A stretch of 64,000 nucleotides of DNA from the IMG/VR virus record IMGVR_UViG_3300005527_003200. One strand, 5' to 3'. Origin of the DNA: a virus. Its lineage: Duplodnaviria; Heunggongvirae; Uroviricota; Caudoviricetes. This document shows, one piece after another, positions 6,402 to 42,443 of this stretch (within the stretch, counting starts at the first letter, position 1; the number at the start of each line of letters is the position of its first letter). The position numbers and the translations under genes are program-made. The notes below the pieces were generated by a model. That model saw nothing but the letters and a program-made list of their open reading frames with translations. It had not been told where the DNA came from and searched no databases.

Positions 6402-6403
6402 TC

Positions 6404-6855: not shown

Positions 6856-6856
6856 T

Positions 6857-6960
6857 TTACATCCTTATATAACCATCGGCGGAATCTTGTTGATACTGTT
6901 GTTAGCACATTTATGCCAATAATAACAACGACTGCAATAACAATAACAATTTCAATCATT
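6857..6960 (-). CDS. Micro-ORF encoding a single-TM peptide (about 35 aa; MIEIVIVIAVVVIIG...)
   Basis: A GGAG RBS lies 7 nt upstream. Its start overlaps the upstream stop and its stop overlaps the downstream start (ATGA-type coupling). Confidence 0.35.
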
Positions 6961-17871: not shown

Positions 17872-18269
17872 GATACCTCGCTCCTGCCATCGCCAAGATC
17901 TCGCTTTTGAACATACATGCCGGAGTTCTTGATGGCTTGTTCTTGTTCCCATGTTTCCATCACAACATGGCGGCATACATTTTGAAACCAACGGTCAACA
18001 ATGTCCCCATCAGTGTCTGTAGGTTTCATCATATAGCCAGCCTTTACCAGTCGAGCCACAAAGATTTCATTCCAATCCAACTCAAATGCACCTTGATGCA
18101 GATTGTCAGGATCCACATCCATACTGAGCACAGCCACGTAAGGTTCTCCCTTTTCAGTAGCAAGTTGTTTTTCAGTTTTAGCTGGTGGTTCGGCAACTCT
18201 AGGCTTAGTGACTTTTTCTACCACAGGTGGTGGTTTCTTTTGAGATTTTTTAAACCAATCAAACATCAA
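17868..18269 (-). CDS. Hypothetical protein (133 aa)
   Basis: It is operon-consistent. Confidence 0.5.
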   Translation of the reverse strand: MMFDWFKKSQKKPPPVVEKVTKPRVAEPPAKTEKQLATEKGEPYVAVLSMDVDPDNLHQGAFELDWNEIFVARLVKAGYMMKPTDTDGDIVDRWFQNVCRHVVMETWEQEQAIKNSGMYVQKRDLGDGRSEVS

Positions 18270-22876: not shown

Positions 22877-23497
22877 TTATGCTTGATTGTCTGCAGCCAG
22901 CTTTTTCTGCAAGTGATTCAACAAGAAACCATACGCAGGCAGAATAACCAACAGACTCACAATGATCTTACTGATTGAATTGTTGGTTGCAACAATGTGC
23001 CAGTTAGCAGCCATGAACTCATTTGCGCCACCAGCAAAGGCAGTAAAGAAGAACACATAGGTATCAAAGAATGTGCTCACAATTGAACTCAATGCAGGAG
23101 CAATCCACCAAGTGGCGTACTTTTCACGAATGTATTGGAACACGTACACATCAAGCAAGTTGCTCACAAAGTATGCAACACCCGAGCCAAGACCAATGCG
23201 GAAAGCAACTGAGTCAGGAGCACCGCCCAGTTTGACCACTGCCATTGACACAATGATAGCAGGGATGAATGCCAATGCAATCACCGCACGACCAGTTTGT
23301 TTGCCTAACATTCGCACAGTCAAGTCGGTCAACACAACCACTAGTGGGAATGTGAATGCGGCTGCTGCCAATGGTGCACCAAACACTGAGAATTTGAATT
23401 GCACAATGTAGTTGCTGATAGCAATGATAATGATATGTGCCAGCATGAGCTTGTAGGCCAATGCACGGTCAACGCCACTTAAGATTCGATCTAACAT
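22877..23497 (-). CDS. YhhQ/VUT-family queuosine-precursor (preQ0/preQ1) transporter
   Basis: It has six or more TM segments and a COG1738/DUF165-like pattern with a conserved FF/Y-rich core. Confidence 0.6.
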   Translation of the reverse strand: MLDRILSGVDRALAYKLMLAHIIIIAISNYIVQFKFSVFGAPLAAAAFTFPLVVVLTDLTVRMLGKQTGRAVIALAFIPAIIVSMAVVKLGGAPDSVAFRIGLGSGVAYFVSNLLDVYVFQYIREKYATWWIAPALSSIVSTFFDTYVFFFTAFAGGANEFMAANWHIVATNNSISKIIVSLLVILPAYGFLLNHLQKKLAADNQA

Positions 23498-23514: not shown

Positions 23515-24021
23515 TTAAACGAATAGATCTTCCATCCACTCGCGATGGCCTTCTCTAAAAGCCATATTGCTCTGTGTTTCGCGCACTTCCACACGATAGC
23601 ACCAGAGACGCTCTGCTTCACCCGGTCCCCACAGGTCCGGAATGTAAACACCGTTCACATACTTGTACAGCATGTCTGCCAAGCCTTCACACCCTAAGCG
23701 TGGCAGGATTGTGAGTTTGGCCATTTTTTTCTCTTGCAAGAGCTTGTATGTCGCCAGCTCTGGATCATCTGCAGACACCAGCAAGGTATGATCAAATTGA
23801 TCTTCTAATGTCTTTTTAAGTTCTTTGAGACCGCCATAGTCAGCGGCCCAGTTACGCACATCCAGGTTGTCTGTGCCAAAGTAGAACTTCATTGAGAATG
23901 AGTAACCGTGAATTAGATTGCAGTGGCTGTCGGCACGCCATTGACGGTATGCGCAGGGAAAAGCATCATGATACTCTTTGGTGCTGGTGTACTTGTATTG
24001 TACTGGTTGATTTGTTGCCAT
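23515..24021 (-). CDS. queD: 6-carboxytetrahydropterin synthase QueD (PTPS family)
   Basis: It carries the C..H.NLIHGY zinc/catalytic motif (CxxxHGH). At 168 aa it has the typical QueD/PTPS size. Confidence 0.75.
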   Translation of the reverse strand: MATNQPVQYKYTSTKEYHDAFPCAYRQWRADSHCNLIHGYSFSMKFYFGTDNLDVRNWAADYGGLKELKKTLEDQFDHTLLVSADDPELATYKLLQEKKMAKLTILPRLGCEGLADMLYKYVNGVYIPDLWGPGEAERLWCYRVEVRETQSNMAFREGHREWMEDLFV

Positions 24022-26251: not shown

Positions 26252-26662
26252 TCATACGCAAACTTCCTCTTTGAGATATCGTTTGAGTTCTTTGTCATTG
26301 GGTTCTACAGTATAGTTCTTCTTGAAAAAAATTTCATAACTATCACTGCCGTATTTGCCAATGCCGTACAAATCGGTAGCATCATCACCATTCCAAGTCA
26401 TGTAGTCTTGACTCATTTTTTTCAATCTGGTGTATCTTACATTAGCCATACCTAATGGTGCAATAATGCTTTTTACAAAATCTTCATCGGCTGCGATCAA
26501 TGCTTCCGGCGTTGGGAACCAGTATAAAAATTCTGGCAAGGTTGTTTTTACAGATTTGCGGCCTGTTTGATTCAACATGATCACTCCAACCATGTGTTCC
26601 CATGAGTTAGAGATTTGTTGTTGAACCATCAGATCATCTCGTAATGCATGAAAAAATATCAT
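26252..26662 (-). CDS. HhH-GPD superfamily (endonuclease-III-like) DNA-glycosylase-fold protein, short form without an FeS domain
   Basis: VIMLNQTGRKSV...LYGIGKYGSDSYEIF aligns by eye to the EndoIII VLLSAQATDVSV...LPGVGRKTANVV segment. Its start overlaps the FolE stop. Confidence 0.5.
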   Translation of the reverse strand: MIFFHALRDDLMVQQQISNSWEHMVGVIMLNQTGRKSVKTTLPEFLYWFPTPEALIAADEDFVKSIIAPLGMANVRYTRLKKMSQDYMTWNGDDATDLYGIGKYGSDSYEIFFKKNYTVEPNDKELKRYLKEEVCV

Positions 26663-27351
26663 CGTGGTGCAAAGTCCTGTTGTAGTTTGATGTTGTCAAA
26701 GAATTCTTTTTTTACACTTTGGTCTGATTTAAACGCACCGTGTAAAACTGTTGTTTGGGTGAGACTAGAGTGAGCCATGATACCGCGATTCTCACAACAA
26801 CCATGGGTAGCTTGTATATAAACTGCAACATCCTTGGACCCGGTCGCGAATTCAATTTCGCGAGCAATATCCATACATAGCTCTTCTTGGAGAGTGCCTC
26901 GACGGGCACACCATTGCGCAATCCTGGTATACTTGGATAGACCAATAAGTTTGGGGCCAGCAATGATTCCAATATAAGCCACACCCGTAACAGGCTGGTG
27001 ATGATGCGAACACATGCTCTTAAGCTCTGAACGCACCACAAGCATACCTTCGTATGCTCCGTCCGTATCGTTTGGGAAAGCCGTAGCATTAGGGCTCGTC
27101 TCATAGCGACCAGCCATAATTTCATTGAAGTACATTTTTGCAAGGCGTTGCGCCGTGCCTTGTGAGTTAGGATCATTTTCCCTGTCAATTAGTAGTGTAT
27201 CGAGAACTTGTTCAAATGCTTGAGTGGCCTCCATAATCAAATGTTCACGATCTGACTCAGCAACATAATCACTGATGTTGTCACCAGCCCAGAATCTCTT
27301 GCCGTCTGCCTTCATGCGTTCGCGAAGGACTTGTGATAGATTTTTTTCCAA
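26659..27351 (-). CDS. folE: GTP cyclohydrolase I (FolE)
   Basis: It carries SMCSHHH and IQATHGCCENRGI, matching the FolE Cys/His zinc site and the H.C...RG motif. Confidence 0.8.
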   Translation of the reverse strand: MEKNLSQVLRERMKADGKRFWAGDNISDYVAESDREHLIMEATQAFEQVLDTLLIDRENDPNSQGTAQRLAKMYFNEIMAGRYETSPNATAFPNDTDGAYEGMLVVRSELKSMCSHHHQPVTGVAYIGIIAGPKLIGLSKYTRIAQWCARRGTLQEELCMDIAREIEFATGSKDVAVYIQATHGCCENRGIMAHSSLTQTTVLHGAFKSDQSVKKEFFDNIKLQQDFAPR

Positions 27352-27418: not shown

Positions 27419-28129
27419 TCAATAGATTAATTGATTTGTGACCCATCTAATTAACCTATCTGCTATAACTTGATGGCCCAGTTGATTGGGATGGCCACCA
27501 CTACTGCTAAACAATTCATGTCCTCGTTCCATACTGGTAAATTTCACTCCCAGTATGTCAGCACAAGTTACCTTGCCATTCTCATACATGTATCTAGTGT
27601 CTACTTCAGACCAAAATTTTATCTTTTGCCAGCCAGCAACAAATAGTGCATTTACCCTGGCTTCTCTGCAAATTCCTTGCACAGTCAAGATAGCAGTGTT
27701 CACAGCATAATCGTGTGCGGCATCGCTAGAAAAATACTTGTAATACAATTCGTTTAGATTGTGTTCTGTGGGATTGGCATTGGGCACAGCCACTCCGTTG
27801 GGTTGCAAATGTACCAGCCGATCATGCCAGGTCATGTGACGTTGTTGAGAAGTCAAAAACACCAATACAGTGTACCTATTGTCTGGATTTTCTCTTTCAG
27901 TGCGGTACTTGTCTAAAAAGCCTTTGAGTTGCAACACTGTGTGAGGAATGCTGGATCCAGGTACTGCAACATTATCCACACTGGTCACATTCAAACGGTC
28001 ACCAATGATCTGGCCAAATGATTTTTCGCCTGGCTCAAGTTCTGCACCATATGCCCAACTGTCTCCTAAAATAGCAAGTCTATGAATCATTCTTATCAAA
28101 CTCTGTTTCCACGCGGCTGTACCAAGCAT
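27419..28129 (-). CDS. SGNH/GDSL-like hydrolase paralogue 3 (canonical GDSW block I)
   Basis: It has ILGDSWAYG at the N-terminus and GGHPNQLGH (DxxH-type) near the C-terminus. Confidence 0.6.
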   Translation of the reverse strand: MLGTAAWKQSLIRMIHRLAILGDSWAYGAELEPGEKSFGQIIGDRLNVTSVDNVAVPGSSIPHTVLQLKGFLDKYRTERENPDNRYTVLVFLTSQQRHMTWHDRLVHLQPNGVAVPNANPTEHNLNELYYKYFSSDAAHDYAVNTAILTVQGICREARVNALFVAGWQKIKFWSEVDTRYMYENGKVTCADILGVKFTSMERGHELFSSSGGHPNQLGHQVIADRLIRWVTNQLIY

Positions 28130-29081
28130 CTACGTCTCGTGCATATTCTCTCAACAGATTATAGTTGTTTTCAATGCGTGTGGACAACTGTTGTTTTAAC
28201 TCACAACATTGTCCCACAGTCAATTGATCTAGCCTGTGTATTTCTTTCAGCACAGCATGTAATCTCTGATCTTCATCTGTGATGTTGTCATAACTGTGTG
28301 TGACAATGTCATCAAACACATCAAACCCCAGTTTACGCACTTCAGCAACCAGACCAGGAACTGCAAACCAAATTGGAATTTGTCTCAAGCCAAATGCCTT
28401 GAATGTTTTTTCACTGATAAAATGACTGCGCCACACGCCAACATCAGACTGACTGCCAGACTCTGCAACAATATTGAACATGCAGGTTTTGAACATGCTG
28501 TTGGTTTGGTCATGTTCTAGCCCAGTTGATCGTTCCACAATCCCATCCAACAACAGCGGCAATTCTCTTGGTATAATTTCTCGGTATTCGTTGGTAATGT
28601 TATTGGCACCCATGCTACCAAAGCTGAGTCTGACACTAGAGATGTCCGTCAACCCAGCAGCAAGTCTAGCACGACTTATACTGGGCCTACGAATCAAACA
28701 CAAAAACTTTGTGTCAATGCCAGTAGCGGCACCAGACGCATCAAGACGATCAAACCAACCGGCAAAATTTGTTAGAAAAGTAGGTTGCGACAGTGCTTTG
28801 TACGAAAGGCCATCAACGTCAACCACAGCGTTGAATACCACCAGGATATCTTCAACTGGTAGTGTTTGCAAATACGTAATTAGATTGCCGATCACTTTGT
28901 CACACTGGCCTTCGGCTCTAAAATCTACTATGAGTTTTTTGCCGTGCAAGTCGGCTCGTGACATTCCGCTGGTTGCTAAATCTTGTTCTACTCTAGGACC
29001 AGGGTTATCAAGATACCATTGTGCCATGTGCAATGCACCATAATGCACAAGATTGCGTCTTGAAAAACTAAACCACTTCAT
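28080..29081 (-). CDS. Putative glycosyltransferase, GT10-like, paralogue C
   Basis: It has the C-terminal motif NIVAESGSQSD...SEKTFKAF...PIWFAVPG...LGFDVFDDIVTHSYD. Confidence 0.5.
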   Translation of the reverse strand: MKWFSFSRRNLVHYGALHMAQWYLDNPGPRVEQDLATSGMSRADLHGKKLIVDFRAEGQCDKVIGNLITYLQTLPVEDILVVFNAVVDVDGLSYKALSQPTFLTNFAGWFDRLDASGAATGIDTKFLCLIRRPSISRARLAAGLTDISSVRLSFGSMGANNITNEYREIIPRELPLLLDGIVERSTGLEHDQTNSMFKTCMFNIVAESGSQSDVGVWRSHFISEKTFKAFGLRQIPIWFAVPGLVAEVRKLGFDVFDDIVTHSYDNITDEDQRLHAVLKEIHRLDQLTVGQCCELKQQLSTRIENNYNLLREYARDVDAWYSRVETEFDKNDS

Positions 29082-29674
29082 TCAACAATCTTGATATTTC
29101 TTAGATCAGGATATGGCACATACACAGGTTTAGGATTGTGTTCCTTGACACCTTGTAGCAATGCCACACCTTGAATGGCATCTTCAATACTGGGCTTGTA
29201 GTGATAGCCCACATGAAATGTCTTTTGGTCCTGCCAAGGTGCCACAGTCAAGTCTCTGCCATCATAGCGTTGGCGCAATATGGTTTCATATGCTTTTTTA
29301 TCATCCAACAATATAGCACCACCATGCCCAATAGCCAATGGCTTTGTATGTCCAAAACTCAAACACTGCATGGTGCCTGGCCGATACATATCCTGTTCCA
29401 ATCTGCGAGCTGAGTCCCAAATTCTAGTGTAAGTGAATTCATACTCGCCTTCCCAATGCTGCCAGTCAATATCGTGATAGACATAGTGAATGCCTAACTT
29501 GTGCATGGTCATAGGAATGCTCAAATAAGTGTAAGGTGTAAACTTACAAGCTCGTACTCGATCATATCGCAAGCAAAGTTCAATGGCATGTGTACAGCAA
29601 TCAGTCATGATTGCATACGGTGCTCCTGTGAACTCTGCTAGTTCTTCTTCAAACTTTTTTATCTTGTCGAACAT
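29078..29674 (-). CDS. DegT/DnrJ/EryC1-like (sugar aminotransferase fold) protein, short form
   Basis: The N-terminal FEEELAEFTGAPYAIMTDCCTHAIELCL resembles the DegT N-terminus, and SFGHTKPLAIGHGGAIL resembles the Lys-PLP region. The internal segment is shortened. Confidence 0.45.
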   Translation of the reverse strand: MFDKIKKFEEELAEFTGAPYAIMTDCCTHAIELCLRYDRVRACKFTPYTYLSIPMTMHKLGIHYVYHDIDWQHWEGEYEFTYTRIWDSARRLEQDMYRPGTMQCLSFGHTKPLAIGHGGAILLDDKKAYETILRQRYDGRDLTVAPWQDQKTFHVGYHYKPSIEDAIQGVALLQGVKEHNPKPVYVPYPDLRNIKIVE

Positions 29675-30611
29675 ACCAGTTCCATGCGTGTTGAATCATG
29701 TCATCTAGCTCATAATGACGCCATGCTCCTGCTATCAAATTAAACTTTTCTGAACTGGCAGTAAGTACAGGAGGGTCACCGGCTCTACGCTTGCCAACAA
29801 CAACATTCAATGGTTGTTGTGTTTCATCAAGTGCGGCTTCAATAATGCCGTGATTGCTTGTGCCCATGCTGGAGCCAAGATTGTAAACGCCCGCAGGGAT
29901 TTTGTGATATAACGCCAGAACGTGGGCCCGGGCAATATCATCCACATGCACGTAATCACGCACACATGTACCATCCTCAGTGGGGAAATCGTTTCCGTTT
30001 AACACAAAATCTTTTTGATCCCTTATGCTTTCAAGCACTCTAGCAATAATATGTGTGGCACCAGGCTCTTGACCATGCCTGCCTTTGGGGTCTGCACCAC
30101 ATGCATTGAAATAGCGAAAACTAACATAGTCAAGACCGTATGCCCGGTGATAGCTTTCCAGCATCATGTCAATCATCAGTTTAGATTCGCCATAAGGACT
30201 AACAGGTTCGTTGGGATCCACTTCATGTATGGGATTCATGACGGGCTCACCGTATGTGGCTGCTGAACTTGAAAACACCAATCTACAACGAGGCATGCTT
30301 TGTTTAACAATATCCAACAACTTCAATGTTTTGGCCACATTGTTGTTGTAGTATTCTGAAGGGTTCTGTACTGAAGGCCCCACAAGGCTGGTGCCAGCAC
30401 AATGAATGATAGCATTGGGTTGCTTTTGTATGATCCAACTCAGTGCTACATCACTTGCAAAGTCCTGATACAAGAATCCATCGGGCACACCTCTAAGATG
30501 TTCAGGAGGCTGTCTGCGATCAATGCCGTATACTTCATGCCCGGCATCTTTCAATGCCAGCATGGTCTGACCACCAATGTACCCGGCTGATCCAGTTACA
30601 ATTACAATCAT
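29649..30611 (-). CDS. galE: UDP-sugar 4-epimerase (GalE-like NAD-dependent epimerase/dehydratase)
   Basis: It has a TGSAGYIGG Rossmann motif and a YGESK catalytic dyad region. Confidence 0.75.
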   Translation of the reverse strand: MIVIVTGSAGYIGGQTMLALKDAGHEVYGIDRRQPPEHLRGVPDGFLYQDFASDVALSWIIQKQPNAIIHCAGTSLVGPSVQNPSEYYNNNVAKTLKLLDIVKQSMPRCRLVFSSSAATYGEPVMNPIHEVDPNEPVSPYGESKLMIDMMLESYHRAYGLDYVSFRYFNACGADPKGRHGQEPGATHIIARVLESIRDQKDFVLNGNDFPTEDGTCVRDYVHVDDIARAHVLALYHKIPAGVYNLGSSMGTSNHGIIEAALDETQQPLNVVVGKRRAGDPPVLTASSEKFNLIAGAWRHYELDDMIQHAWNWYVRQDKKV

Positions 30612-31822
30612 TTTTCAATCTTTACAACTTGATATTTTTCGTGAGAAGCGTGGTCACGATAGCGGTTGCCCGCTCTATTCCATTGCTCACCGCTACCACT
30701 AATAATATCAATAACGCGATCCACAGTGGCATTGTTCCAATCTGAAATAAGTCCCATGTTGTGGTGCGGCTCGCGAAGTAGGTTTTGCATTTTGTGATAA
30801 GCATCATCTATGCTCCAGGGAATATACAGTCTATTGGGATCGTTCGCGAAGGTTTCAGGAAAACTGCGATACGCTGGATATAGCACATTGCATCCAACAG
30901 TATCGGCCTCTGATACGGTGTTTGAAACCCAATCTTGTAAAGCACAATTAAACAACACACGAGTATTGTTGAGATGACTATAGTATTCATTCTTGCTTAT
31001 ATTGTCGTAGATCTTGAGCTTGCCTTCTGCCTCCATACGGAGGGCACGTTCAATATAGTCTGGATTGTTGGATCGGAGAGGTCCGCCACTGTATATTGCA
31101 AACTCACACGGTTCGGAGGTAAGCTCACCATACATCTCAATAAGGTCCATGAAGAATCCAGGTTGTTTTTCCTGATCGAAACGGGCTGCAAAACCCACTC
31201 GTCTCGGTCTTTCAGCAAACGGCGTGATATTCTCTGTACCGCCAATTCTTTCCAGAACCTCTGATTTTCCAAATGCCAGACCGGAAATGTTGTAGATTGG
31301 AGCAGTCCATCCAGCGATGCGCATGTGCGCGACCATTTCTTCATTGGTAGCCAATACTGCACCCCCCGAGAAAGCCACCATCTCATTGACCATTTGTTCA
31401 TACAAGTTCATCCACTTTGCCATACCCCACACATGCACAAAGTCATCAGGATCAATGGCCTGTGCCAAACAACGAACATAAATCTTTGGACATTGTTCTT
31501 GTGGAATCTGATTCATGATGTAACCAAGGCTTTCAAAGCCCGGCTGGAACATGTCTTCAAAGTAGATCACATCGTCACCGGTAACATCGCCGTTCTTCAT
31601 GAGCTGAACCAAGTTCATCATTTGGCTCATGGCAAAGAAACTGCGTCCGTGTGCGTCTAACACTTGACCTACTGAGATAGCTTGTGTGTTGTCAATTGTA
31701 GTGCCAGGCACATACACAACATCAAGACCTCTGCGGTCAAACACACGTCGATTCCACTCTGTGAGTTGTAGTGTGTAGCGGGCTTCATAACTTTCCAAGC
31801 CCATGTAAAATAGTTTTCTCAT
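30608..31822 (-). CDS. GT-B-fold glycosyltransferase (GT4/GT1-like)
   Basis: The C-terminal domain carries an E..K-type motif (FAARFDQEKQPG). Confidence 0.55.
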   Translation of the reverse strand: MRKLFYMGLESYEARYTLQLTEWNRRVFDRRGLDVVYVPGTTIDNTQAISVGQVLDAHGRSFFAMSQMMNLVQLMKNGDVTGDDVIYFEDMFQPGFESLGYIMNQIPQEQCPKIYVRCLAQAIDPDDFVHVWGMAKWMNLYEQMVNEMVAFSGGAVLATNEEMVAHMRIAGWTAPIYNISGLAFGKSEVLERIGGTENITPFAERPRRVGFAARFDQEKQPGFFMDLIEMYGELTSEPCEFAIYSGGPLRSNNPDYIERALRMEAEGKLKIYDNISKNEYYSHLNNTRVLFNCALQDWVSNTVSEADTVGCNVLYPAYRSFPETFANDPNRLYIPWSIDDAYHKMQNLLREPHHNMGLISDWNNATVDRVIDIISGSGEQWNRAGNRYRDHASHEKYQVVKIEK

Positions 31823-32772: not shown

Positions 32773-33216
32773 TTAGATAGCAATGTTAATACTAGGGCGG
32801 TGAGTTTCATACTTAATAAGAGCTCCGTTTTCACCATCTTCGGAGACCTCAATCCAGACTGAGCGTTCTGGATACCGTGCGGCAATTTGCAAATACAAAT
32901 CGTCTGACATCATTTCACATGACTTGTAGTCGAGTTGGACGGTTCCTGACTCGTAGAGTTTTTGTAGCCATCGTTTGAACTGGATGAATTCAATGTCTCG
33001 ATCATTGTGTACAACATCAATCCACACCCGGAAGTGGAAGATATGACGGTGAGGAGTACCAAGGAAACTAACATCATACTCATCGCCCGTCTTAAGGGCT
33101 GGATCTGTTGCGGCTGCGGGGTAGAAGTGGATGCCTTCTTTTTGGAAGGTAACCCAGATTCTTCTTTGTGCGGCATATTTGATTCTTTCAATTTGTTCAC
33201 GTTCATCTTGTATCAT
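32773..33216 (-). CDS. Hypothetical protein (147 aa)
   Basis: It is operon-consistent. Confidence 0.5.
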   Translation of the reverse strand: MIQDEREQIERIKYAAQRRIWVTFQKEGIHFYPAAATDPALKTGDEYDVSFLGTPHRHIFHFRVWIDVVHNDRDIEFIQFKRWLQKLYESGTVQLDYKSCEMMSDDLYLQIAARYPERSVWIEVSEDGENGALIKYETHRPSINIAI

Positions 33217-33746
33217 TTGATTACTTCATCCTTTGTGTATTGGTCCCAAGAGGTAAATGTTTTTCTATCCAGCAAGTCATGCAGGCTGTGACACCATACT
33301 CCTGGGTTGGTTGCTTTGAAATCTTTGTCGTCTAGCTTGATAGTGGCATTGTAGCCTAGCAGTTTAATATAAGGCAGTTTCACTGAAATCATAGGAACAA
33401 ATTGTGCTTGTTCGCACAAGCTACCTTCGCACAATCCTTCCACAGCACTTGAATCAAGATCCAAGGTACACCAGTATCCTCGATCCAGCCACGGTTGAAT
33501 CATCTGTTCCCAGGCAGTCCAGACTCCAGCATCGTTCATAGTGGGGTTTGGAAAACTTTGATTGGCGCCAAAGTAGATGTGTGTGATTGGATTTTTACTC
33601 TTGTGGTCTGACTCACCCAGTTGCCACATGATTTGATCTGCATCTTGCAGTCCGACCACAAACAATGTACGGTGACCGGCTACAGGACTGGCCTCAACTT
33701 CTGTACCTACAAAGAAATTGGTATCTTCGTGTCCGGGTCTATTCAT
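33213..33746 (-). CDS. Hypothetical protein (177 aa)
   Basis: It has ATGA overlaps at both ends. Confidence 0.5.
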   Translation of the reverse strand: MNRPGHEDTNFFVGTEVEASPVAGHRTLFVVGLQDADQIMWQLGESDHKSKNPITHIYFGANQSFPNPTMNDAGVWTAWEQMIQPWLDRGYWCTLDLDSSAVEGLCEGSLCEQAQFVPMISVKLPYIKLLGYNATIKLDDKDFKATNPGVWCHSLHDLLDRKTFTSWDQYTKDEVIK

Positions 33747-34720
33747 AATGTAATCTCAAATAAGTTAGATAAATGTTTGTTGTTTGCTTTTTTGTCTGTC
33801 TTAGTTTTTTTCATGCCAGGGTGTACCTTTTTATTTTTAAATTCAGTAGCATCAAAAATTGATCTTGGCACAAAGAAACGATCCATAACTCCAGATACTT
33901 TGGTATAACTTTTACCAAGGTCATTGCCGTTAAAATCACACATCACATAATCACCTAACCCCATCATAAGATTGATAATATCATTGCAAGTGTACCCAAA
34001 TCGTTTACAATGTGTATCTCGCAGTTCGACCTGAACCACGGGTTGATACTTAGCAATGGTTTGTGTTGCACCTTCTAATGCAAACAGTTCAGAACCTTCA
34101 ATATCAATCTTAATAAGATCAACATTTTCAAACCCAAAACTGTCAAGTGTGCGTTGCTCTGCAGTCTGTGTGGGATTGTTGGTAGTTTTGCCATCAAGTA
34201 ACACAGCATCACCGCGACTGCACTCGTTGGTTTTTTGTTCCATGGTAATAATTCCAGCGACTTTACCTAATGCATATTCAAAAAACTCAATCTCTCCTAT
34301 CAAGTCAAGACTGGCAAATGTGCCATTGGGGAACTTGAACCAGCCATCTGGACGATCCGGCTGATGTCTTACTTGTTGCAGTTTGCTATCCCAATAACGA
34401 CCTTGAAGTTTTGCATTTTTTGCAATGTCTACATTGAGTTTCATTAGTTCCATGCTAGACTGCATGGGCTCAAAGGTTTTTACATGTTGGCACCAGGTGG
34501 CATATTCAATTGCGTTCATGCCAATGTTGCCACCAATGTCAATTACAGTTCTTGCATTAGGTAGCAAGCGACGATTCATTACCAAATTGCGAGCCTGGTA
34601 TGGACCGTTTTCTCTTGCCATACGCTGTTCATAAAGTTTGTCATTGTCCCAGATCCAATATTGCCTGCCTATGCGGTTTGTTACTAGTTTTTTGTTGTTG
34701 ATATCAAATAGTTGTGCCAT
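33743..34720 (-). CDS. FkbM-family methyltransferase
   Basis: It carries VIDIGGNIGMNAIEYA and DLIKIDIEGSELFALEGA. Confidence 0.7.
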   Translation of the reverse strand: MAQLFDINNKKLVTNRIGRQYWIWDNDKLYEQRMARENGPYQARNLVMNRRLLPNARTVIDIGGNIGMNAIEYATWCQHVKTFEPMQSSMELMKLNVDIAKNAKLQGRYWDSKLQQVRHQPDRPDGWFKFPNGTFASLDLIGEIEFFEYALGKVAGIITMEQKTNECSRGDAVLLDGKTTNNPTQTAEQRTLDSFGFENVDLIKIDIEGSELFALEGATQTIAKYQPVVQVELRDTHCKRFGYTCNDIINLMMGLGDYVMCDFNGNDLGKSYTKVSGVMDRFFVPRSIFDATEFKNKKVHPGMKKTKTDKKANNKHLSNLFEITL

Positions 34721-34791
34721 GTTGTTGCCTTATAAAGAAATCCTGCATACATATTTAACAGTATACAGGATCACGAGAGAGAAAGCAAGAG

Positions 34792-35715
34792 TTACTTCTT
34801 CTTTTTCCAACGATCTTTGAAGGCATCAGGGCACCATCTGGTTGCAATTTCCATTGGATCATTTTGAGCCAATACATCTAATGCTTCAGGAGTCAAATCG
34901 ATTAACTTGCGTTCTGTCGAACCAGGAGTTATATTGTAGAGACTCTGCTTTGTTTCTTCCCTAACATCTTCAAAATTTGAATCAGGAAGATCTTCAAACA
35001 AGCAAATAAATTCCTTGTAGTAAGAATTACGATTCCATCTATTATAGGTTACTTCTTGTATTGTTGCATTGGTTACGTCAATGAATCTTCCGTCAACATA
35101 CTGTAACACTCCGTCGTTATATTTTTCAAACGGACGTAAATTTTCGTTAGTAGTGGGACCACCGTGTGTTCTTTCTGACGTATGAACGGTCGTTGCTAAA
35201 GCATGATTCATTGCATATCTAGCCATGTCTTTAGGGCTGACTCTCCTGCTGTTTTCGATCACTTCTCGAATTAAATCTTTTTCAATTTGTTTAATAGGAT
35301 ATGTGTGCTCGCAATGCCATTCATTGGCAAAGTTATCACCTGATAAACCGGCCAACCCTAGCTCATGCATTCTTCCAATGGCCTTGCCAGTGATTAGATC
35401 TGTACCGCTATTGCCGGTAGCATGTTGTAATCCCATAACATCTGAATGAAATTTTCTGATACCGCCATTACTCCAATGCACAGTGTCACCAGAAATGCTC
35501 GCCTGGTTATATTCAGGTCCTGCGGCAAAACCACCATTGAAAAATCTTTTGTAATAGCAATATTCTTTGAGTTCTTCGATTGTGCGGGCTTTAACATGAT
35601 TAGCAAATTTTCGCAAGTCGCCGGCCATAAATGCTAATCTTACACCGGCCGTTATAGCCTTTAGAACGGCTTTGTTGGGATCTTGTGCAAGTAGTTTCTG
35701 AATATTCAAAACCAA
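34792..35715 (-). CDS. Hypothetical protein (307 aa) immediately downstream of dpdA, with its own promoter
   Basis: No domain was recognised. The promoter at 35740-35768 precedes it. Confidence 0.55.
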   Translation of the reverse strand: MVLNIQKLLAQDPNKAVLKAITAGVRLAFMAGDLRKFANHVKARTIEELKEYCYYKRFFNGGFAAGPEYNQASISGDTVHWSNGGIRKFHSDVMGLQHATGNSGTDLITGKAIGRMHELGLAGLSGDNFANEWHCEHTYPIKQIEKDLIREVIENSRRVSPKDMARYAMNHALATTVHTSERTHGGPTTNENLRPFEKYNDGVLQYVDGRFIDVTNATIQEVTYNRWNRNSYYKEFICLFEDLPDSNFEDVREETKQSLYNITPGSTERKLIDLTPEALDVLAQNDPMEIATRWCPDAFKDRWKKKK

Positions 35716-35739
35716 CTCCTAAGTTGTTACAATGCACAC

Positions 35740-35768
35740 ACTATAACACAAGAACAATTTTGAGTCAA
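35740..35768 (-). promoter_or_regulatory. Sigma-70-like promoter: TTGACT, 17-bp spacer, TATAGT
   Basis: The minus strand reads tTTGACTcaaaattgttcttgtgtTATAGTgtgtgc. Confidence 0.55.
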
Positions 35769-35790
35769 TCAAATTGTTAAAATAAAAGTA

Positions 35791-37329
35791 TTATATTTCT
35801 GTGCTCAGGTTGTCCAATTTGTCACTGTCCAAATCTACTTCGTCGGGCTCCGACTCACTGTCCTCATATTCAAACAATGCATTGAATTGAGTAGTAGCAT
35901 TCACAGTCTTCTTGCCCTTAAAGCCTCGTGTGCCCACAATCTCCATCCAATATGTACTGTATTTCTCAACAATAGATTCGGCTTGTTCTCTTGTGGGTGC
36001 AGTGAAAATATCTTCCACAATGTCTTCAAAGTAAGCATAGTCACCAGTGCTACGACGCATCATGGCAGGATGTTCTCCTGCATCAAAACGTCTATTGGCT
36101 TCTTGTACTGCGGTCAAGTGCATCCAGACATTATGGCCCATGAGTAAAGCATATGAGAAACTGTCCCACGATGTCTTGCCTTCTTTACCATTTTTATTTA
36201 GGTCGCCTGGCTTGTAGATACAGATGTCTTTCATCTTGAGAAGTTTGCTTATGGGGCTATCTTCCCAACGTGGTACTACTCCATCGGCAACTATACTTGT
36301 ACCCCAGGCACGTGTGTCAGTGGCGTACTTTTTGTCGTCGGCTGTAGGAGCCATGCGATACGACCATTTTGAGTTGTTTTCAAAGACATTTTCAAAGTAG
36401 ACCTGTCCGTTTGCTGTTGCAAGGAACGGACTGGCGCAGTCAAACGAGATTGTGAAGTTTGGATTGACATATTTTCTCACGGCCCTTTGGATTACAGTTA
36501 ATAAAACAGCCCACTCCAGTTTGGAGGTTCCCAAGAAGTGCATCCAATCATGGACACCTTCTTGAAGTAAATTGTCATAGCGCAATGCCACAATACGTTT
36601 GAGTACCAAGTGAACATCACACATGTTTTGTCCGCCCATGGCCCAGCCATTGAAATGCGTATCTGGATATTTTTGTGGATCGCAATAATCCTTCATCATC
36701 TGATACCATTCTTCTGCATGAGTATGGTTACCACCTTGCAACACATTCAAGAACTTGGTACCACCGTTTGCCACACCCTTGCGATGTTTCATGAAGTATT
36801 CGTTGTTGTAATGTGTTGCCTTGACTGCCTCATCCAAAGTGCTAATGCCAGACTTCCATCCATTCTTTTCATTGATAACAAAACTTGGAATATCAAGTGT
36901 CATAGCATAGTCTGCTATACCATCTAACCAGGCTAGTGCTTGTTCTCGTTTGGCCTGAGCCTTGGCACAACCTGAGTTGGCTCGCCAATCACCTTCCCAC
37001 ACACCTTTAGCAATCTGGAAACCACCAGAGTCGCCCAGCATGATTGTGCCAGGCTCTCTGTTCCGTACCATGTCTTCTGACCAGTCTTGTTTAGCAAGAT
37101 CGAGATTTGCATGCCCTCCAGAGTATAGGGACCAACGGTAAGGGAAAAGTGCTTTGGTAGAGTTAAGCCAATTAAGTTGCTCCATGTCACTAAGGCCCTG
37201 AGGCAATCTCGCCGGATCCACATATGGTTCATTCCTTTGCTTGCCTATGAACGTGGCATAGAACCCGCTGATGGCCGGAAGGAACACAGCGTAGTCCGAT
37301 TGCTTGGCAGTTAAGTCGTCTTGGGTCAT
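35791..37329 (-). CDS. dpdA: DpdA-like DNA-guanine transglycosylase (tRNA-guanine transglycosylase superfamily)
   Basis: It has IMLGDSGGFQ (TGT catalytic Asp motif) and ISFDCASPF (the second Asp motif, xFDCxxP). A C-terminal acidic tail is present. Confidence 0.75.
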   Translation of the reverse strand: MTQDDLTAKQSDYAVFLPAISGFYATFIGKQRNEPYVDPARLPQGLSDMEQLNWLNSTKALFPYRWSLYSGGHANLDLAKQDWSEDMVRNREPGTIMLGDSGGFQIAKGVWEGDWRANSGCAKAQAKREQALAWLDGIADYAMTLDIPSFVINEKNGWKSGISTLDEAVKATHYNNEYFMKHRKGVANGGTKFLNVLQGGNHTHAEEWYQMMKDYCDPQKYPDTHFNGWAMGGQNMCDVHLVLKRIVALRYDNLLQEGVHDWMHFLGTSKLEWAVLLTVIQRAVRKYVNPNFTISFDCASPFLATANGQVYFENVFENNSKWSYRMAPTADDKKYATDTRAWGTSIVADGVVPRWEDSPISKLLKMKDICIYKPGDLNKNGKEGKTSWDSFSYALLMGHNVWMHLTAVQEANRRFDAGEHPAMMRRSTGDYAYFEDIVEDIFTAPTREQAESIVEKYSTYWMEIVGTRGFKGKKTVNATTQFNALFEYEDSESEPDEVDLDSDKLDNLSTEI

Positions 37330-38084
37330 GCTTGGTAAAAGTTTACTGTTTCAAATAGTTCACAGTCCTCTTTATAGAAACTGCGAAGTCTATTTAGATA
37401 GTCTGGATTGCTTGAAAGTTTTTCATTGATACGATCTACTATATTTTGTTGTAACTCTGTAGTGAACAATTCTGTCACTGTGGGGTTGATCTTTTTAGTA
37501 ATATTAAACACATTGGTAGGATCTTGATCTTCTGTTGTGAGATTAAACGGTGTACCAGTAAACTGTTCCATCATCTTGCCAAAGTTTTTGGCCAGCTCAT
37601 CATCACACCGTAACCAAGTGATCTTAGAATGATCGATACCTTTAATAAAATCACATTGTGGTTGAGTGTGACTGTCGAACATTACAGTATCGAATATCAT
37701 ATCCCAATCAACATTGTTTATATGCAATGGATGTTCTGGATCCCATCCTTGCAGATACTGTGCTAGTCCAGTCACCCACCGATTGATAGGATCTCTAAGT
37801 ATCACAGCATACTGGGCATTCTGTAAATGTTCTGACCATGTTGAAACGTTGATATTGTATTGTGTTGGAATATCTTCGTAAAATTTTTGTGTACGGTAGT
37901 TAAACAAATATCCCGGTGTATGATGCTTGGTCCAGCTGCTGGCATTTTTAGGAATGTGAACGTAAATCAAACATCTTGATGGATTATCTTTGACAATGCA
38001 ATAGCTTTGTCCATTCCCAGCTTGGTTAGGTCCTGCCGGATCACCATCATCAACAAATTTAGGTCCTGTTGGTTTTTTAAACAT
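37326..38084 (-). CDS. Sulfotransferase (Sulfotransfer_2 / carbohydrate sulfotransferase-like, PAPS-dependent)
   Basis: The 5'-PSB-like motif LIYVHIPKNASSW and the 3'-PB-like motif ILRDPINRWVTGLAQY are present. The ORF was trimmed to MFKKPTG. Confidence 0.55.
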   Translation of the reverse strand: MFKKPTGPKFVDDGDPAGPNQAGNGQSYCIVKDNPSRCLIYVHIPKNASSWTKHHTPGYLFNYRTQKFYEDIPTQYNINVSTWSEHLQNAQYAVILRDPINRWVTGLAQYLQGWDPEHPLHINNVDWDMIFDTVMFDSHTQPQCDFIKGIDHSKITWLRCDDELAKNFGKMMEQFTGTPFNLTTEDQDPTNVFNITKKINPTVTELFTTELQQNIVDRINEKLSSNPDYLNRLRSFYKEDCELFETVNFYQA

Positions 38085-38841: not shown

Positions 38842-39786
38842 TTATTTAGAATTTGCAACTATTCTGGCTAATGTTTGTCCGCCTCTAAGCGAATCTATTT
38901 CTCCAGGTTTTTGGAACTCAAACCATGCAACGTCAGCAGGGCCATTGTGACGATGCATGAGCTCAAATCCCAATGTTTCAGCATGTTCTTGAATCAACGA
39001 TCCTGGAGTGTAGCACATGTAACTGCGCTCGGCCAATGCAACTCCGTGAGCACGATCACAGTCGTTGTAGGTAAAAAACACCACTCCGCCAGGCCGAAGT
39101 TTTTTCCACAGCTCATCCAAGTACTGACATATCAATTCCAATGGTTTGTAATTGAAGTAATTGTAAGCAAAGCAATATCCAAACTGAGCATCTGGCAACA
39201 GTGCAAGTATTGGTTTGCCTAGAATCTCTTCAGCTGTGTATAATCTCAGTCTACGTCGATATTCTTCAGTAAATCCTTGACAGGCAGGTTCTAGCAATTC
39301 AAGATTGTTGTCAATCATGTACAACGGGTCCAATGGTACCAATTGCTCCACGTGTTGTTCCAGTGCTGGTCTGAAAATCAATCCAGGCACACGCCAATCT
39401 GTGTAGCGTAAAATTCTACCTTGTAGTAGTTCAGCACTTTCGGGATCGCAACGTAGCCTACGATTAAGAATGTGTTCGGTAGTGTCATAACACATTTCAT
39501 GCTGGAACAATCTCAAACTTTCACGCAAGTATTCTGGATGCTGTGCAGTCATAGCGTCAATCACGTGACTGCGTATAGCGTCAATGGTATGATTGAATTG
39601 CTGGAAACTTTCATTAATTTTGTTACCATTGGCAATGATGCCTTGTGTAAATTTGTTAAATTGCACATTGTGGTTGGCAATTTTGTGTATCACAGCATCA
39701 AGTCTGTGACGGGCTTCTTGATGAATTTGACCTAACTCAAATTCATCAATGTGGTTCAAGTAATCAACAAGTTCGCTCAGTTTCAT
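38842..39786 (-). CDS. Putative SAM-dependent methyltransferase-like protein
   Basis: The C-terminal LRPGGVVFFTYND resembles the methyltransferase motif. Its ATG overlaps the polymerase TGA stop. Confidence 0.45.
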   Translation of the reverse strand: MKLSELVDYLNHIDEFELGQIHQEARHRLDAVIHKIANHNVQFNKFTQGIIANGNKINESFQQFNHTIDAIRSHVIDAMTAQHPEYLRESLRLFQHEMCYDTTEHILNRRLRCDPESAELLQGRILRYTDWRVPGLIFRPALEQHVEQLVPLDPLYMIDNNLELLEPACQGFTEEYRRRLRLYTAEEILGKPILALLPDAQFGYCFAYNYFNYKPLELICQYLDELWKKLRPGGVVFFTYNDCDRAHGVALAERSYMCYTPGSLIQEHAETLGFELMHRHNGPADVAWFEFQKPGEIDSLRGGQTLARIVANSK

Positions 39787-42443
39787 TCGAATGAAAATAG
39801 TGATGTAAAAGTATTTTCTGTGTTGGTAGCAGACGCAAGGTCCCATTCCAACACACCCAGCAAGTTGTCGACCTTTTGATCCACAACAGTTGCTTCCATT
39901 AGCCCATCGTCAAACGGCAGTTCAGTAAACCATGCAGGCAATCTTTGCTCATCTGTAGGATAGCCAATTGATGTCCATCCAAGTGCATTTGATTTGAGTT
40001 TGCACACAATGGTTTTCATACCATCCACAACCTGCATTGAGTAGTTGTCTGAATTCATTCTACGCATTTGATTCCAATTCATTGCGGCACGAACGTGTCC
40101 TGGCATGTTTGCTTTGCCCAGGCGTGCTTCCTCTGCCGCATATTTGGTCAAGTTGTTCACACGCTTAGGCGATCCTTTTTCCCAGCCTGGACGCTCTTTA
40201 AACTCATACTTGAATTCTCTAATGCGTTCAATGATCTCATCTCGTTGTGTACCTGCCAGTACTTTATTTAGAATTTCTAACAGGAAGTCTTGAATTACTT
40301 TGGGGGTATCTGAACGCTTGAGATCCAAGCCCATGGCCTTGGTCTTGCCAATCTTGCCGTCTACATCCAGTCGCTTGCCTTCCAAGTCAATGATGTTCAC
40401 AGCATAACGCTTCTTGGTAATGAACAAACTGCGGTCAGCAACCAGTTCACGACCTGCTTTGATCAACGCACCCATGTCTCGGGGACAATGGAACGCCTGT
40501 TCCATAAACGCTGGAAAGCTCTCATTCACTTGATCAGCAATTGAGTCGTACAGTTGGATGCAGATTTCTTTTGACCATTCCATCCGTCCTTCTGCAACTT
40601 CTTTTTCCAGTATGGGCCACGCAGAAAAATAGCATGAGTCTGTATCACCATAGATGATGGCCTTGCCTGTGTGATCATATTCGCCTGTGATGCACTCATT
40701 GATGTGAGCATCCATGTGCTTGGCAATACTTCGACCTGCCAGTGTGGTTGACTGCCCAATACGCTTGTCAAAGAATCTACAGCCTGGATTCAAAATAGCA
40801 CCATACAAGCTATTCAAGTTAATCTTCTTGACCAATTGACGTTTGTCCCAGAACGCAATCTCTTTGGGATCCTTGGTCTGCTTCTTCTTGGCTTGCAGTT
40901 CTTGTCGTTCACGATACCAGCGTTCCAGCAGGCCAGGGATGATACCTTTCTTCTCGTAAGTGAGAATGGTACCATTGGCAGTAAGGATCCAAGGTTGATT
41001 TGAGTCAAAGATCATGTGCCAGATTTCCATAGCAGAGTGTACTGACTCTTCGCCACCTTCCCAGTCAATGGTAATTTCTGTACCACGTTGCTGTTCCATC
41101 ACAGCAGTATACTCTAAACTGGCAAACAAGCCTTCCCATGCAGCCGCAAAACTTTGTCCCTTGGCCATGTTGGATTTGATCAACTGATCAGTCATGGTTT
41201 GCCGCAATTGGCCCACCACAGTTTCTGGACCCATGTTCATGGCACGAATTGCAGATGGATATAGACTGTTGATGTCCACTGACCCAATCCACATGTGCAG
41301 GCCCTTTTTAGGATATGCCACATAAGCACCTGCGGCCTGGGTGTCATCATCTGTAAGGCGTTGCTTACGATTGGGCACAACCATTCCACGCTCGTGTGCT
41401 TCATTGATAATGGCCTGTTCAGTCACTGCCACAGCACCCATTGTGGTTTGTAGCAACACAGTATTGGCGTGTGCCAGTTCATTGGCTAGGTCCAAGAAAC
41501 GCAATTTCTTGTCTAACTTGGCAATGATCATGGTGTCTTGGCGGTTGTACTCAATAAACTTTTTGAAGTGCTGGTTGTACAACTGATCCAGTGTGCCTTC
41601 AAATTGTGTTTTGCGTTCACCCAGCTCGTACTCGCCGATAGCATCCAAACTATATGAGTGGCGTTCCTCGTATGTGTACTTGCGATACAACTGCATGTAG
41701 TCCATATGCACACGACCGACTAAGTCGTAAGTTTGATTCTCTGCGCCAAAGCGTTCAAACATTCTTTGCTTGGGAAACTGTCCCCACAAACAAAAGCGTC
41801 GTGTGTCATCCTTGCTGAGTATTCTTGTGGTACGATTTACTGTGTAAGGAATGTCGTAACCTTCTGAGTTCCAACCTGTAAGTACATCCGCACCTTCAAT
41901 CACATCCAAGAACATTTTGATCATGTCTTCTTCACGCTCAAACAAGATGGTATTTTCAAACTCGGCCACCAGCTCTTGTGCAGTATCCCAGCTTAGATGT
42001 TTAGGCGGCACCGCCAGTGTGATCATCTGATCCAGCCAATCTAAATATACAGATATAGCAGTGATAGGATTGAAGGGATCTGCCACAGGCGAGAATCCAC
42101 GCTCTGCATCAAACGCAACTTCGATGTCAAAAAATGCTGTGTGCAGTTCTGGAGCATCTTGGTCTTTGTAGTTCTCTTCCAAACATCTAAAGATAGGATT
42201 GATGTCTGATTCATACAACTGCTTGCCCGACTGGCTGCGAACTTCCTTGCGAAATTCTTTGTTGTTGCGCGATGAGAATCTATTTACAGGTGTGCCGTAG
42301 ATGCTTTGAAACTTGCCTCTAGGATCGTCATAATAGAAAATGTAGTTGGCAGGATATTCCTTGTAGACTCGTTCGCCATCGCGGCGTTCTACTACATGTA
42401 TGCGATCGTGTTCACGATCAAAAAGTGCGTCGATATAACTCAT
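39783..42443 (-). CDS. Family-B DNA polymerase, T4 gp43 type
   Basis: It has exo I FFDIEV, exo II and polymerase motifs, a YGDTDS (pol C) motif, and an N-terminal layout like T4 gp43. Confidence 0.9.
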   Translation of the reverse strand: MSYIDALFDREHDRIHVVERRDGERVYKEYPANYIFYYDDPRGKFQSIYGTPVNRFSSRNNKEFRKEVRSQSGKQLYESDINPIFRCLEENYKDQDAPELHTAFFDIEVAFDAERGFSPVADPFNPITAISVYLDWLDQMITLAVPPKHLSWDTAQELVAEFENTILFEREEDMIKMFLDVIEGADVLTGWNSEGYDIPYTVNRTTRILSKDDTRRFCLWGQFPKQRMFERFGAENQTYDLVGRVHMDYMQLYRKYTYEERHSYSLDAIGEYELGERKTQFEGTLDQLYNQHFKKFIEYNRQDTMIIAKLDKKLRFLDLANELAHANTVLLQTTMGAVAVTEQAIINEAHERGMVVPNRKQRLTDDDTQAAGAYVAYPKKGLHMWIGSVDINSLYPSAIRAMNMGPETVVGQLRQTMTDQLIKSNMAKGQSFAAAWEGLFASLEYTAVMEQQRGTEITIDWEGGEESVHSAMEIWHMIFDSNQPWILTANGTILTYEKKGIIPGLLERWYRERQELQAKKKQTKDPKEIAFWDKRQLVKKINLNSLYGAILNPGCRFFDKRIGQSTTLAGRSIAKHMDAHINECITGEYDHTGKAIIYGDTDSCYFSAWPILEKEVAEGRMEWSKEICIQLYDSIADQVNESFPAFMEQAFHCPRDMGALIKAGRELVADRSLFITKKRYAVNIIDLEGKRLDVDGKIGKTKAMGLDLKRSDTPKVIQDFLLEILNKVLAGTQRDEIIERIREFKYEFKERPGWEKGSPKRVNNLTKYAAEEARLGKANMPGHVRAAMNWNQMRRMNSDNYSMQVVDGMKTIVCKLKSNALGWTSIGYPTDEQRLPAWFTELPFDDGLMEATVVDQKVDNLLGVLEWDLASATNTENTFTSLFSFE

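Follow-up and report, generated by a model that had tools for sequence, protein, structure and literature searches.

The stretch analysed here, hereafter the window, comprises 64,000 nucleotides (nt) from the ~350-kb genome of a jumbo phage of the Caudoviricetes (IMG/VR record IMGVR_UViG_3300005527_003200), and gene context was read within the window only. It includes four neighbouring genes for which the original prediction had proposed a DpdA of the tRNA-guanine transglycosylase (TGT) family, translationally coupled to an upstream sulfotransferase and followed by an orphan 307-residue protein (p307) and an FkbM methyltransferase, with the three neighbours regarded as candidate DpdA partners or tailors of the inserted base. 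On balance, our analysis indicates that this interval is probably a mosaic, in which a conserved gene for a DpdA-like enzyme forms part of the phage backbone and two accessory insertions lie beside it. Here, fold, motifs, synteny, indel boundaries, and co-occurrence counts were computed directly, and from them we infer the chemistry, the inserted base, and the cassette substrate. The four genes, their motifs, the ATGA overlap, and the TTGACT-17-TATAGT promoter were all found as originally described, and no near-identical DNA turned up among isolate phages.

The mosaic structure becomes apparent from a set of 80 viral contigs with close DpdA-like genes (67–82% identity), onto each of which we mapped the proteins of the window. 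The gene order common to these relatives is polB–p334–p240–(slot A)–dpdA–(slot B)–p177–DpdL–p75–p404–epimerase–FolE–HIT–QueD, in which no gene occupies slot A in 46 of 79 loci, and p177 follows dpdA directly, leaving slot B empty, in 65 of 76. In the window, slot A holds the sulfotransferase-like gene and slot B holds p307 and FkbM, a pair present in just 2 of the 80 relatives. In a blastn comparison with L038, the nearest relative, which shares 89% nt identity with the window in the flanks, the alignment runs from 43000 to 35873 and then jumps to 33746–33119. The segment so inserted starts within dpdA, whose final ~27 codons it supplies, and continues through the promoter, p307, and FkbM to end exactly at the p177 ATG. 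Moreover, the three accessory genes have a GC content of 37–40% (39–40% for the inserted p307 and FkbM) versus 44–46% for the backbone. All genes across 29.6–42.4 kb, including the four in question, are carried on the minus strand and are tightly packed. The ATG of the sulfotransferase-like gene lies 1 nt past the p240 stop codon (a longer version of the open reading frame, reaching 38165, runs into p240), and the dpdA start overlaps the sulfotransferase-like stop as ATGA. Similar ATGA overlaps couple FkbM to p177 and p177 to p147, the DpdL homologue, and since this is the norm in the gene string, translational coupling is no special sign of partnership and was rejected as evidence for it.

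On genomic grounds, the p307–FkbM pair is best described as an autonomous, horizontally moving module, because its two genes stay adjacent, occur mostly in foreign backgrounds away from DpdA and deazaguanine genes, and form, in the window, a clean insertion with a promoter of its own. In fact, FkbM immediately follows p307 at all 18 testable loci among 19 viral contigs with p307, five of which have a jumbo-phage context and 14 of which come from unrelated phages. Within 271 kb around the non-jumbo pair loci (18 locus records), there was no DpdA-profile match at E values up to 1 and no FolE, QueD, QueE, or DpdL. This co-occurrence analysis, which the original prediction had itself suggested as a check, therefore finds the pair in phages whose examined sequence is devoid of both, and, with the counts of 14 of 19 unrelated contigs and 2 of 80 DpdA-bearing relatives, it speaks against a role of p307 or FkbM in partnering DpdA or in tailoring the base. 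One foreign phage type with the pair carries genes for heme oxygenase, bilin reductase, S21, and ClpS, and at several foreign loci a gene for a NAD-dependent sugar epimerase/dehydratase comes directly after FkbM.

Regarding the two proteins themselves, the methyltransferase assignment is solid. FkbM matches Pfam Methyltransf_21 (PF05050; E 1.1e-16, 61.8 bits against a cut-off of 22.7), TIGR01444 (8e-16), and phrog_8156 (1e-25), carries the glycine-rich S-adenosylmethionine (SAM) motif IDIGGNIG, and reaches no more than 26% identity with proteins of isolate phages. Sequence searches of the PDB with FkbM and with the sulfotransferase-like protein were uninformative. The description of p307 as unannotatable likewise stands, as its sequence has no family match in the libraries searched and its confidently predicted fold has no match in the PDB or BFVD. 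There are 52 homologue clusters of p307, with 21 representatives recovered by an exhaustive profile search of 1.84 billion proteins, none of them annotatable, and no relative was found in cellular genomes or in the isolate phages searched. The open reading frame is present as first called, although because the homologues begin with MNIQK, its start is most likely the second TTG (35709), which lies 6 nt after an AGGAG (35716–35720) and gives 305 residues instead of 307. In the extended family, only E134–H135 (in a ..CEH..P.. stretch), Y197, and R85 (305-residue numbering) are kept; an HNH-like reading of this (C)EH..P stretch had no tool result in its support and was dropped to speculation. All eight close FkbM relatives (76–95% identity) have a p307-family gene upstream, which is extremely divergent in three of them (25% identity in L036; E values of 1e-14 to 1e-17 in L191 and L197), and versions of FkbM that are 94–95% identical can be accompanied by p307 relatives sharing no more than 25% identity. 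Most likely, FkbM would transfer methyl groups from SAM, typically to the oxygen of a sugar or other hydroxyl, and p307 would act as its obligate partner that selects or produces the acceptor, with remote members of the p307 family able to take its place next to a nearly unchanged FkbM. As it stands, the pair represents a small, defined unknown, in that p307 is phage-only, has an unmatched predicted fold, is always accompanied by the methyltransferase, and moves with it between lineages.

The dedicated promoter claimed for p307 is borne out as well, with TTGACT-17-TATAGT occurring once in the window, where shuffling predicts 0 occurrences, and both hexamers being retained upstream of p307 in four diverged lineages. 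This promoter has a TG-extended −10 element, agrees with the consensus at 10 of 12 positions, and is the best site in 29–43 kb. On the minus strand, ten further intergenic sites match TTGAC-16-to-18-TAnnnT, and of the 11 in all, most read TGCTATAAT or TGCTATACT at −10; they cluster in the small-gene region at 0.2–9 kb and are probably the early promoter class of the phage. A host sigma-70-type promoter from the class found in that small-gene cluster would suit an early-expressed module for host takeover or counter-defence, in which p307 engages a variable host or defence target that FkbM then methylates. The phage-only distribution of p307, its divergence or replacement at a far faster pace than FkbM, and the horizontal movement of the cassette between phage lineages all fit with such a role. 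Nevertheless, we judge it to be rather improbable, as neither a PADLOC entry nor a known anti-defence protein resembles the pair, its counterparts in other phages overlap the upstream gene and have no promoter of their own, and the sugar epimerases neighbouring some loci are in better agreement with a glycan role.

As for the backbone gene, the predicted structure supports a DpdA-like identity for the 512-residue protein, whose clade is new, highly divergent, abundant, and previously unlabelled. This assignment follows from fold, motifs, and genomic context, whereas no sequence-family model recovers the DpdA name given in the original prediction. Specifically, searches of Pfam, PHROGs, NCBIfam, PADLOC, and the PDB (phmmer) returned no match, Pfam PF01702 and the NCBIfam and PADLOC Dpd models did not match at E values up to 0.01–0.1, and the family profile found nothing in the PDB at E values up to 10. 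The AlphaFold model, built from a 66-sequence alignment (pLDDT 84.7, pTM 0.86), displays a TGT-type (β/α)8 barrel for which DpdA is the top structural match, with the DpdA/TGT fold matches standing well apart from other TIM barrels, though identity to bacterial DpdA (PDB ID: 7UI4) is about 13%. Both motifs named at the outset are present, DSGGFQ at residues 100–105 and SFDCASP at residues 295–301, the latter aligning with MFDCVMP of the E. coli TGT in hhalign. Among the 66 family members, D100, S101, G103, Q105, S295, and D297 are invariant, and the family alignment conserves DSGGFQ, LDxP, LQG, HxLG, and SFDxxSP. The canonical TGT zinc motif CxCxxC..H is absent from the alignments, where C370 is the only nearly invariant cysteine, together with H399 and H404. 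Profile comparisons by hhalign were marginal against phiST DpdA3 (CGPG_00065; probability 44% over 78 columns) and lower against the E. coli TGT (18.5%) and a 416-residue protein of cyanophage BUCT-ZZ01 (8%), with the motif columns aligned, and tblastn with the DpdA-like protein retrieved neither phiST nor Campylobacter phages.

With more than 7000 metagenomic homologues, many on contigs of ~350 kb, the DpdA-like protein defines a large jumbo-phage clade of its own. Its isolate homologues are PA5oct gp316 (36% identity) and proteins of Sinorhizobium phage Phosso and Vibrio phage 2.275.O, all annotated as hypothetical, and neither 'DpdA5' nor a link of 2.275.O to deazaguanine turned up in the literature searched. 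The family is a candidate for the transglycosylase of PA5oct-like phages, which the papers found do not name, and equally for that of a very large clade of freshwater and marine jumbo phages (>7000 protein clusters). Since current sequence models miss it, surveys would undercount deazaguanine modification of DNA. At the C terminus, a low-confidence, strongly acidic tail of about residues 467–512, ending in EYEDSESEPDEVDLDSDKLDNLSTEI, is kept in most of the aligned relatives. Acidic tails often dock onto replisome proteins, and dpdA lies just downstream of the DNA polymerase gene.

The view that dpdA lies in a deazaguanine cluster proved correct, as the window encodes FolE, QueD, a QueE-like radical-SAM enzyme, and a DpdL homologue (p147), in addition to a Vut_1/YhhQ-type transporter, a HIT protein, a B12 radical-SAM enzyme, and an AsnB-like amidotransferase. 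No stand-alone QueC was found in the 64 kb of this ~350-kb genome, elsewhere in which QueC may lie. DpdL is a QueD paralogue, defined by an LxxxHRHxF motif and proposed to be a decarboxylase of 7-carboxy-7-deazaguanine (CDG), and the phiST-type route to 7-deazaguanine (DG) in DNA comprises FolE, QueD, QueE, DpdL, and DpdA3 without QueC (PMC10516641). Here, p147 reads LGTPHRHIF, which fits the LxxxHRHxF signature that replaces CxxxHGH of QueD, and it shares 33% identity with phiST DpdL (CGPG_00067; BLASTP E 3e-19) and matches phrog_17812. DpdL is conserved within the clade and as PA5oct gp318. PA5oct also has QueE near its DpdA-like homologue, and in Vibrio phage 2.275.O the homologue sits beside QueF, QueC, a Gat domain protein, a Vut_1 transporter, and FolE.

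Besides DpdL, the conserved neighbours of dpdA, which the original prediction had not named, are p177 and p404. For p177, there was no family or PDB match, with its profile giving only spurious matches to designed repeat proteins in the PDB. The p404 protein can be recognised as a glycosyltransferase through its homologue in the T4-like cyanophage BUCT-ZZ01 (64% identity), which passes Pfam Glyco_trans_1_4 and Glycos_transf_1, and the family profile matches WlaC at an E value of 0.0096. This gene adjoins DpdL in three lineages, namely the present clade, PA5oct (gp317/gp318), and BUCT-ZZ01, and each time the two sit inside a deazaguanine gene cluster. PA5oct gp317, tried as a p307 homologue, was rejected as such and is a homologue of p404 instead. 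From gene order, the DpdL–glycosyltransferase pairing hints at a glycosylated 7-deazaguanine derivative, and no description of glycosylated deazaguanine in DNA was found in the literature searched. Alongside the slot that holds a sulfotransferase, this pairing offers leads for new DNA chemistry. Also in BUCT-ZZ01, the 416-residue hypothetical protein encoded between FolE and DpdL bears ADSGGLQ, HVLGIGS, and SYDSTT in TGT order and is probably the unannotated DpdA of that phage, though the hhalign probability given above is low and PADLOC found nothing.

In the scheme that we propose, FolE, QueD, and QueE from the window would make CDG, which the DpdL homologue would convert to DG as proposed for phiST, and the DpdA-like enzyme would then swap guanine in the replicated phage DNA for DG by way of its invariant D100 and D297. 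Slot A holds an optional, fast-diverging gene of the sulfotransferase fold, and slot B a self-contained mobile cassette of host-type promoter, p307, and FkbM that would work independently of DpdA.

The occupant of slot A was originally called a Sulfotransfer_2-type enzyme, for which both the motifs and the family match were found, albeit with a borderline score of 22.1–22.4 bits against a cut-off of 22, a small margin, over profile positions 7–250 of 252. Among its homologues, 16 of 26 match Sulfotransfer_2 and no other family. The protein contains HIPKNASSW and LRDPINRW, its RDP motif aligns, in the family profile, with that of heparan sulfate 3-O-sulfotransferases, and K46, R97, P99, R102, W103, D137, H139, and Q143 are invariant in the 26 homologues, with H139 being the putative catalytic histidine. 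The window showed no genes for the supply of 3′-phosphoadenosine 5′-phosphosulfate (PAPS). A sulfotransferase-like gene occurs in 24 of 79 relatives, mostly at 20–34% identity to that of the window, and its absence from the other 55 means that DpdA does not need it, although a functional link to DpdA may exist in this lineage. One family member occurs at a phage locus without DpdA, 9 kb from a p307–FkbM pair, and the association of this family may be with p307–FkbM, not with DpdA. A sulfur-related theme runs through the contents of slot A (sulfotransferase, TauE, and SPASM enzymes), for which we offer no explanation.

Several points nonetheless weigh against the mosaic reading. To begin with, the roles of all proteins at the locus are predicted from sequence, fold, and synteny, and the O-methylation substrate of FkbM is taken from family precedent. 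Then, since none of the sequence models recognises the DpdA-like family, which has no CxCxxC..H zinc motif, a different substrate is conceivable, and the family may act on RNA or on another base. That the 512-residue protein is a TGT-fold enzyme working on tRNA or some other substrate, for example in the manner of the CBASS protein Cap10, appears to us very unlikely, considering that DpdA is its top structural match and that its gene is part of a replication/modification block, with DNA polymerase on one side and DpdL on the other. Furthermore, PA5oct, which has a homologue along with QueE, PTPS, and DpdL-like genes, has DNA that resists restriction enzymes with G in their sites, where only QueE and PTPS had been named (PMC12191111), and every deazaguanine-DNA phage studied so far encodes a DpdA (PMC10516641). 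Also to be considered is that the foreign p307–FkbM loci were examined for about 10 kb per side, and a transglycosylase may be encoded elsewhere in those genomes.

Another such point is the placement of the sulfotransferase-like gene, which was found in the p240–dpdA interval at all 77 testable loci, with no gene separating it from dpdA at 67 of them. This position, the overlap with the dpdA start, and the residues of two PAPS-binding motifs and a histidine that stay invariant despite 20–35% overall identity, which argues for a retained enzymatic activity, would favour a tie between this protein alone and DpdA, as a lineage-specific modifier of the base, of an attached sugar, or of DpdA activity, with p307–FkbM unrelated. 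We regard this as unlikely, given that the gene is missing from most close relatives, that one family member resides in a phage locus without DpdA, and that its Pfam support is borderline. Moreover, the position was surveyed in the best 80 of ~388 viral relatives of the family, the most similar ones and all of one lineage, so that adjacency could be mere inheritance. We also know of no sulfated DNA base.

What the slots hold in other relatives is a further consideration, as they also collect SPASM radical-SAM, plain radical-SAM, B12 radical-SAM, and GDSL-like enzymes and a TauE/SafE protein resembling sulfite exporters, and one jumbo lineage carries a second sulfotransferase-like gene directly after FkbM (sulfotransferase–dpdA–p307–FkbM–second sulfotransferase). 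Some of the radical-SAM enzymes in the slots have their SPASM domain at the N terminus. The various enzymes and the second sulfotransferase suggest that the slots could be a hot-spot for tailoring. In its broadest form, a diversification hot-spot for DNA hypermodification, the conserved GT4-like enzyme would use co-encoded sugar-nucleotide genes to glycosylate the DpdA-inserted deazaguanine, and swappable sulfo-, O-methyl-, and radical-SAM enzymes would decorate the sugar. To this we attach little probability, but if true, sulfated or O-methylated glycosyl-deazaguanines would be new natural DNA bases, and p307 would be a new-fold adaptor taking FkbM to DNA-borne sugars in several phage lineages. 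The same slot contents and the lineage with two sulfotransferases, together with the immediate, tightly packed placement of all three genes beside dpdA and the precedent of DpdM for methylating an inserted deazaguanine (PMC10516641), could be cited for the original proposal that the sulfotransferase, p307, and FkbM all partner DpdA or sulfate and methylate the inserted base. However, this is highly improbable when the pair is missing from 78 of 80 DpdA-bearing relatives, occurs in 14 unrelated phage contigs with flanks free of DpdA and deazaguanine genes, and forms a clean, low-GC insertion with its own promoter. FkbM is also outside the known DpdM family, DUF3109, and the pathway appears to stop at CDG or DG, with no obvious methyl or sulfate acceptor such as the amine of preQ1. 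Altogether, a backbone dpdA with two accessory insertions is the reading that we retain, and adjacency alone misleads at dpdA; two of the three supposed partners make up a mobile cassette.

The coordinates of these features, and of others at or near the locus, are collected in Table 1. Between polB and p240 lies p334, another fast-evolving backbone gene, which is 26–55% identical in most relatives (versus 70–97% for polB) and has only weak matches, to the PADLOC candidate model PDC-M14B (E 9e-4) and to Trm10. Upstream of it, some relatives have an interrupted gene for the family-B DNA polymerase, and in PA5oct the interrupting element is a Hef-like homing endonuclease. Sugar-nucleotide-type genes are found among the deazaguanine genes, and between QueE and QueD there are a B12-binding radical-SAM enzyme, a 289-residue protein without assignment, and the Vut_1/YhhQ-type (queuosine-precursor-like) transporter. 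The first two recur beside QueD in many relatives, and the transporter was matched in two only. On the opposite strand, in a three-gene block, the AsnB-like glutamine amidotransferase/asparagine synthase has the only PP-loop of the window (SGGLDS), and it could amidate CDG to 7-amido-7-deazaguanine (ADG) or act on another carboxylate.

Table 1. Features of the window and of related viral loci (L numbers), with positions in the respective sequence.
Feature	Position	Strand	Remarks
Sulfotransferase-like gene	37326-38084	-	252 aa; slot A, between p240 and dpdA; GC 37.3%
DpdA-like DNA-guanine transglycosylase (candidate)	35791-37329	-	512 aa; divergent clade missed by sequence models
Acidic tail of DpdA-like protein	35791-35930	-	
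Promoter TTGACT-17-(TG)TTATAGT	35768-35740	-	sigma-70-type; in front of p307
p307 orphan	34792-35709	-	305 aa from TTG start; 34792-35715 as first called
FkbM-family SAM-dependent methyltransferase (predicted)	33743-34720	-	325 aa; Pfam, TIGR01444, phrog_8156
Insertion relative to L038	33747-35872	-	2.1 kb
p177	33213-33746	-	conserved protein without family match; directly 3′ of dpdA in most relatives
DpdL homologue p147	32773-33216	-	147 aa; QueD paralogue with LxxxHRHxF signature
GT4-like (GT-B) glycosyltransferase p404	30608-31822	-	Pfam match via BUCT-ZZ01 homologue; synteny
FolE	26659-27315		window scan
QueD/PTPS	23515-24021		window scan
QueE-like radical-SAM enzyme	18443-19288		window scan
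Other ten TTGAC-16-to-18-TAnnnT sites	279-251, 1402-1373, 1905-1877, 2891-2863, 3316-3288, 5406-5378, 8656-8628, 9017-8989, 27422-27394, 43908-43880	-	
p334	38842-39846	-	334 aa
Sugar-nucleotide-type genes	29649-30611, 29078-29674, 17395-17976, 27419-28129	-	NAD-dependent epimerase/dehydratase, short DegT-type aminotransferase fragment, cytidylyltransferase-like, GDSL-like protein
Vut_1/YhhQ-type transporter	22877-23497	-	
289-aa protein	21984-22853	-	
B12-binding radical-SAM enzyme	20005-21987	-	660 aa
AsnB-like protein	10212-11753	+	
Slot A occupants in relatives	L056 8387-9394, L088 9039-10004, L097 6843-7862, L101 5401-6351		
Slot B occupants in relatives	L050 7383-8519, L084 7391-8938, L095 11563-12468		
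Sulfotransferase-like second paralogues and non-DpdA members	L192-L196 about 6148-6941, L015 12328-12651, L021 19656-20348		L192-L196 after FkbM
DpdL/glycosyltransferase pair elsewhere	L001 9617-11140, L111 11638-13167		
Interrupted polB	L001 1605-6831, L109 5627-8280, L110 4732-8856		
BUCT-ZZ01 416-aa protein	L111 10346-11596		between FolE and DpdL

Compared with known systems, the DpdA-like protein differs from DpdA and the phage enzymes DpdA1–DpdA4 in having 512 residues with an N-terminal extension and an acidic tail, DpdA3 being of 259 residues. While the known DpdA is a DNA preQ0 insertase (bDpdA, PDB ID: 7UI4), the present protein, which does without CxCxxC..H, belongs to a separate clade and has a predicted activity only. 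The sulfotransferase-like protein resembles PAPS-dependent carbohydrate sulfotransferases (Sulfotransfer_2, including heparan sulfate 3-O-sulfotransferases) in its full-length profile match and in sharing the IPK..S stretch (5′-phosphosulfate loop), the RDP..R..S stretch (3′-phosphate), and an invariant histidine. In contrast to these enzymes, it is a phage-encoded, minimal version of about 200–250 residues with scores at the threshold. Similarly, FkbM is a clear match to the FkbM-family O-methyltransferases (PF05050, TIGR01444), SAM motif included, but is obligately paired with an orphan, an arrangement of which we found no description. The sole validated methylation of an inserted deazaguanine is that by DpdM, a dPreQ1 methyltransferase of the DUF3109 family with cysteine-rich metal sites (PMC10516641). 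The methyltransferase of the window, by comparison, has Methyltransf_21 as its sole Pfam family, has p307 rather than DpdA as its required neighbour, and occurs without deazaguanine genes nearby. Closest to the window is the phiST-type pathway, as FolE, QueD, a QueE-like enzyme, and a DpdL homologue are all there, with no stand-alone QueC in the 64 kb. Nonetheless, the transglycosylase of the window comes from another clade, and to the phiST-type set are added a GT4-like glycosyltransferase, sugar-nucleotide enzymes, a B12 radical-SAM enzyme, Vut_1, and an AsnB-like amidotransferase.

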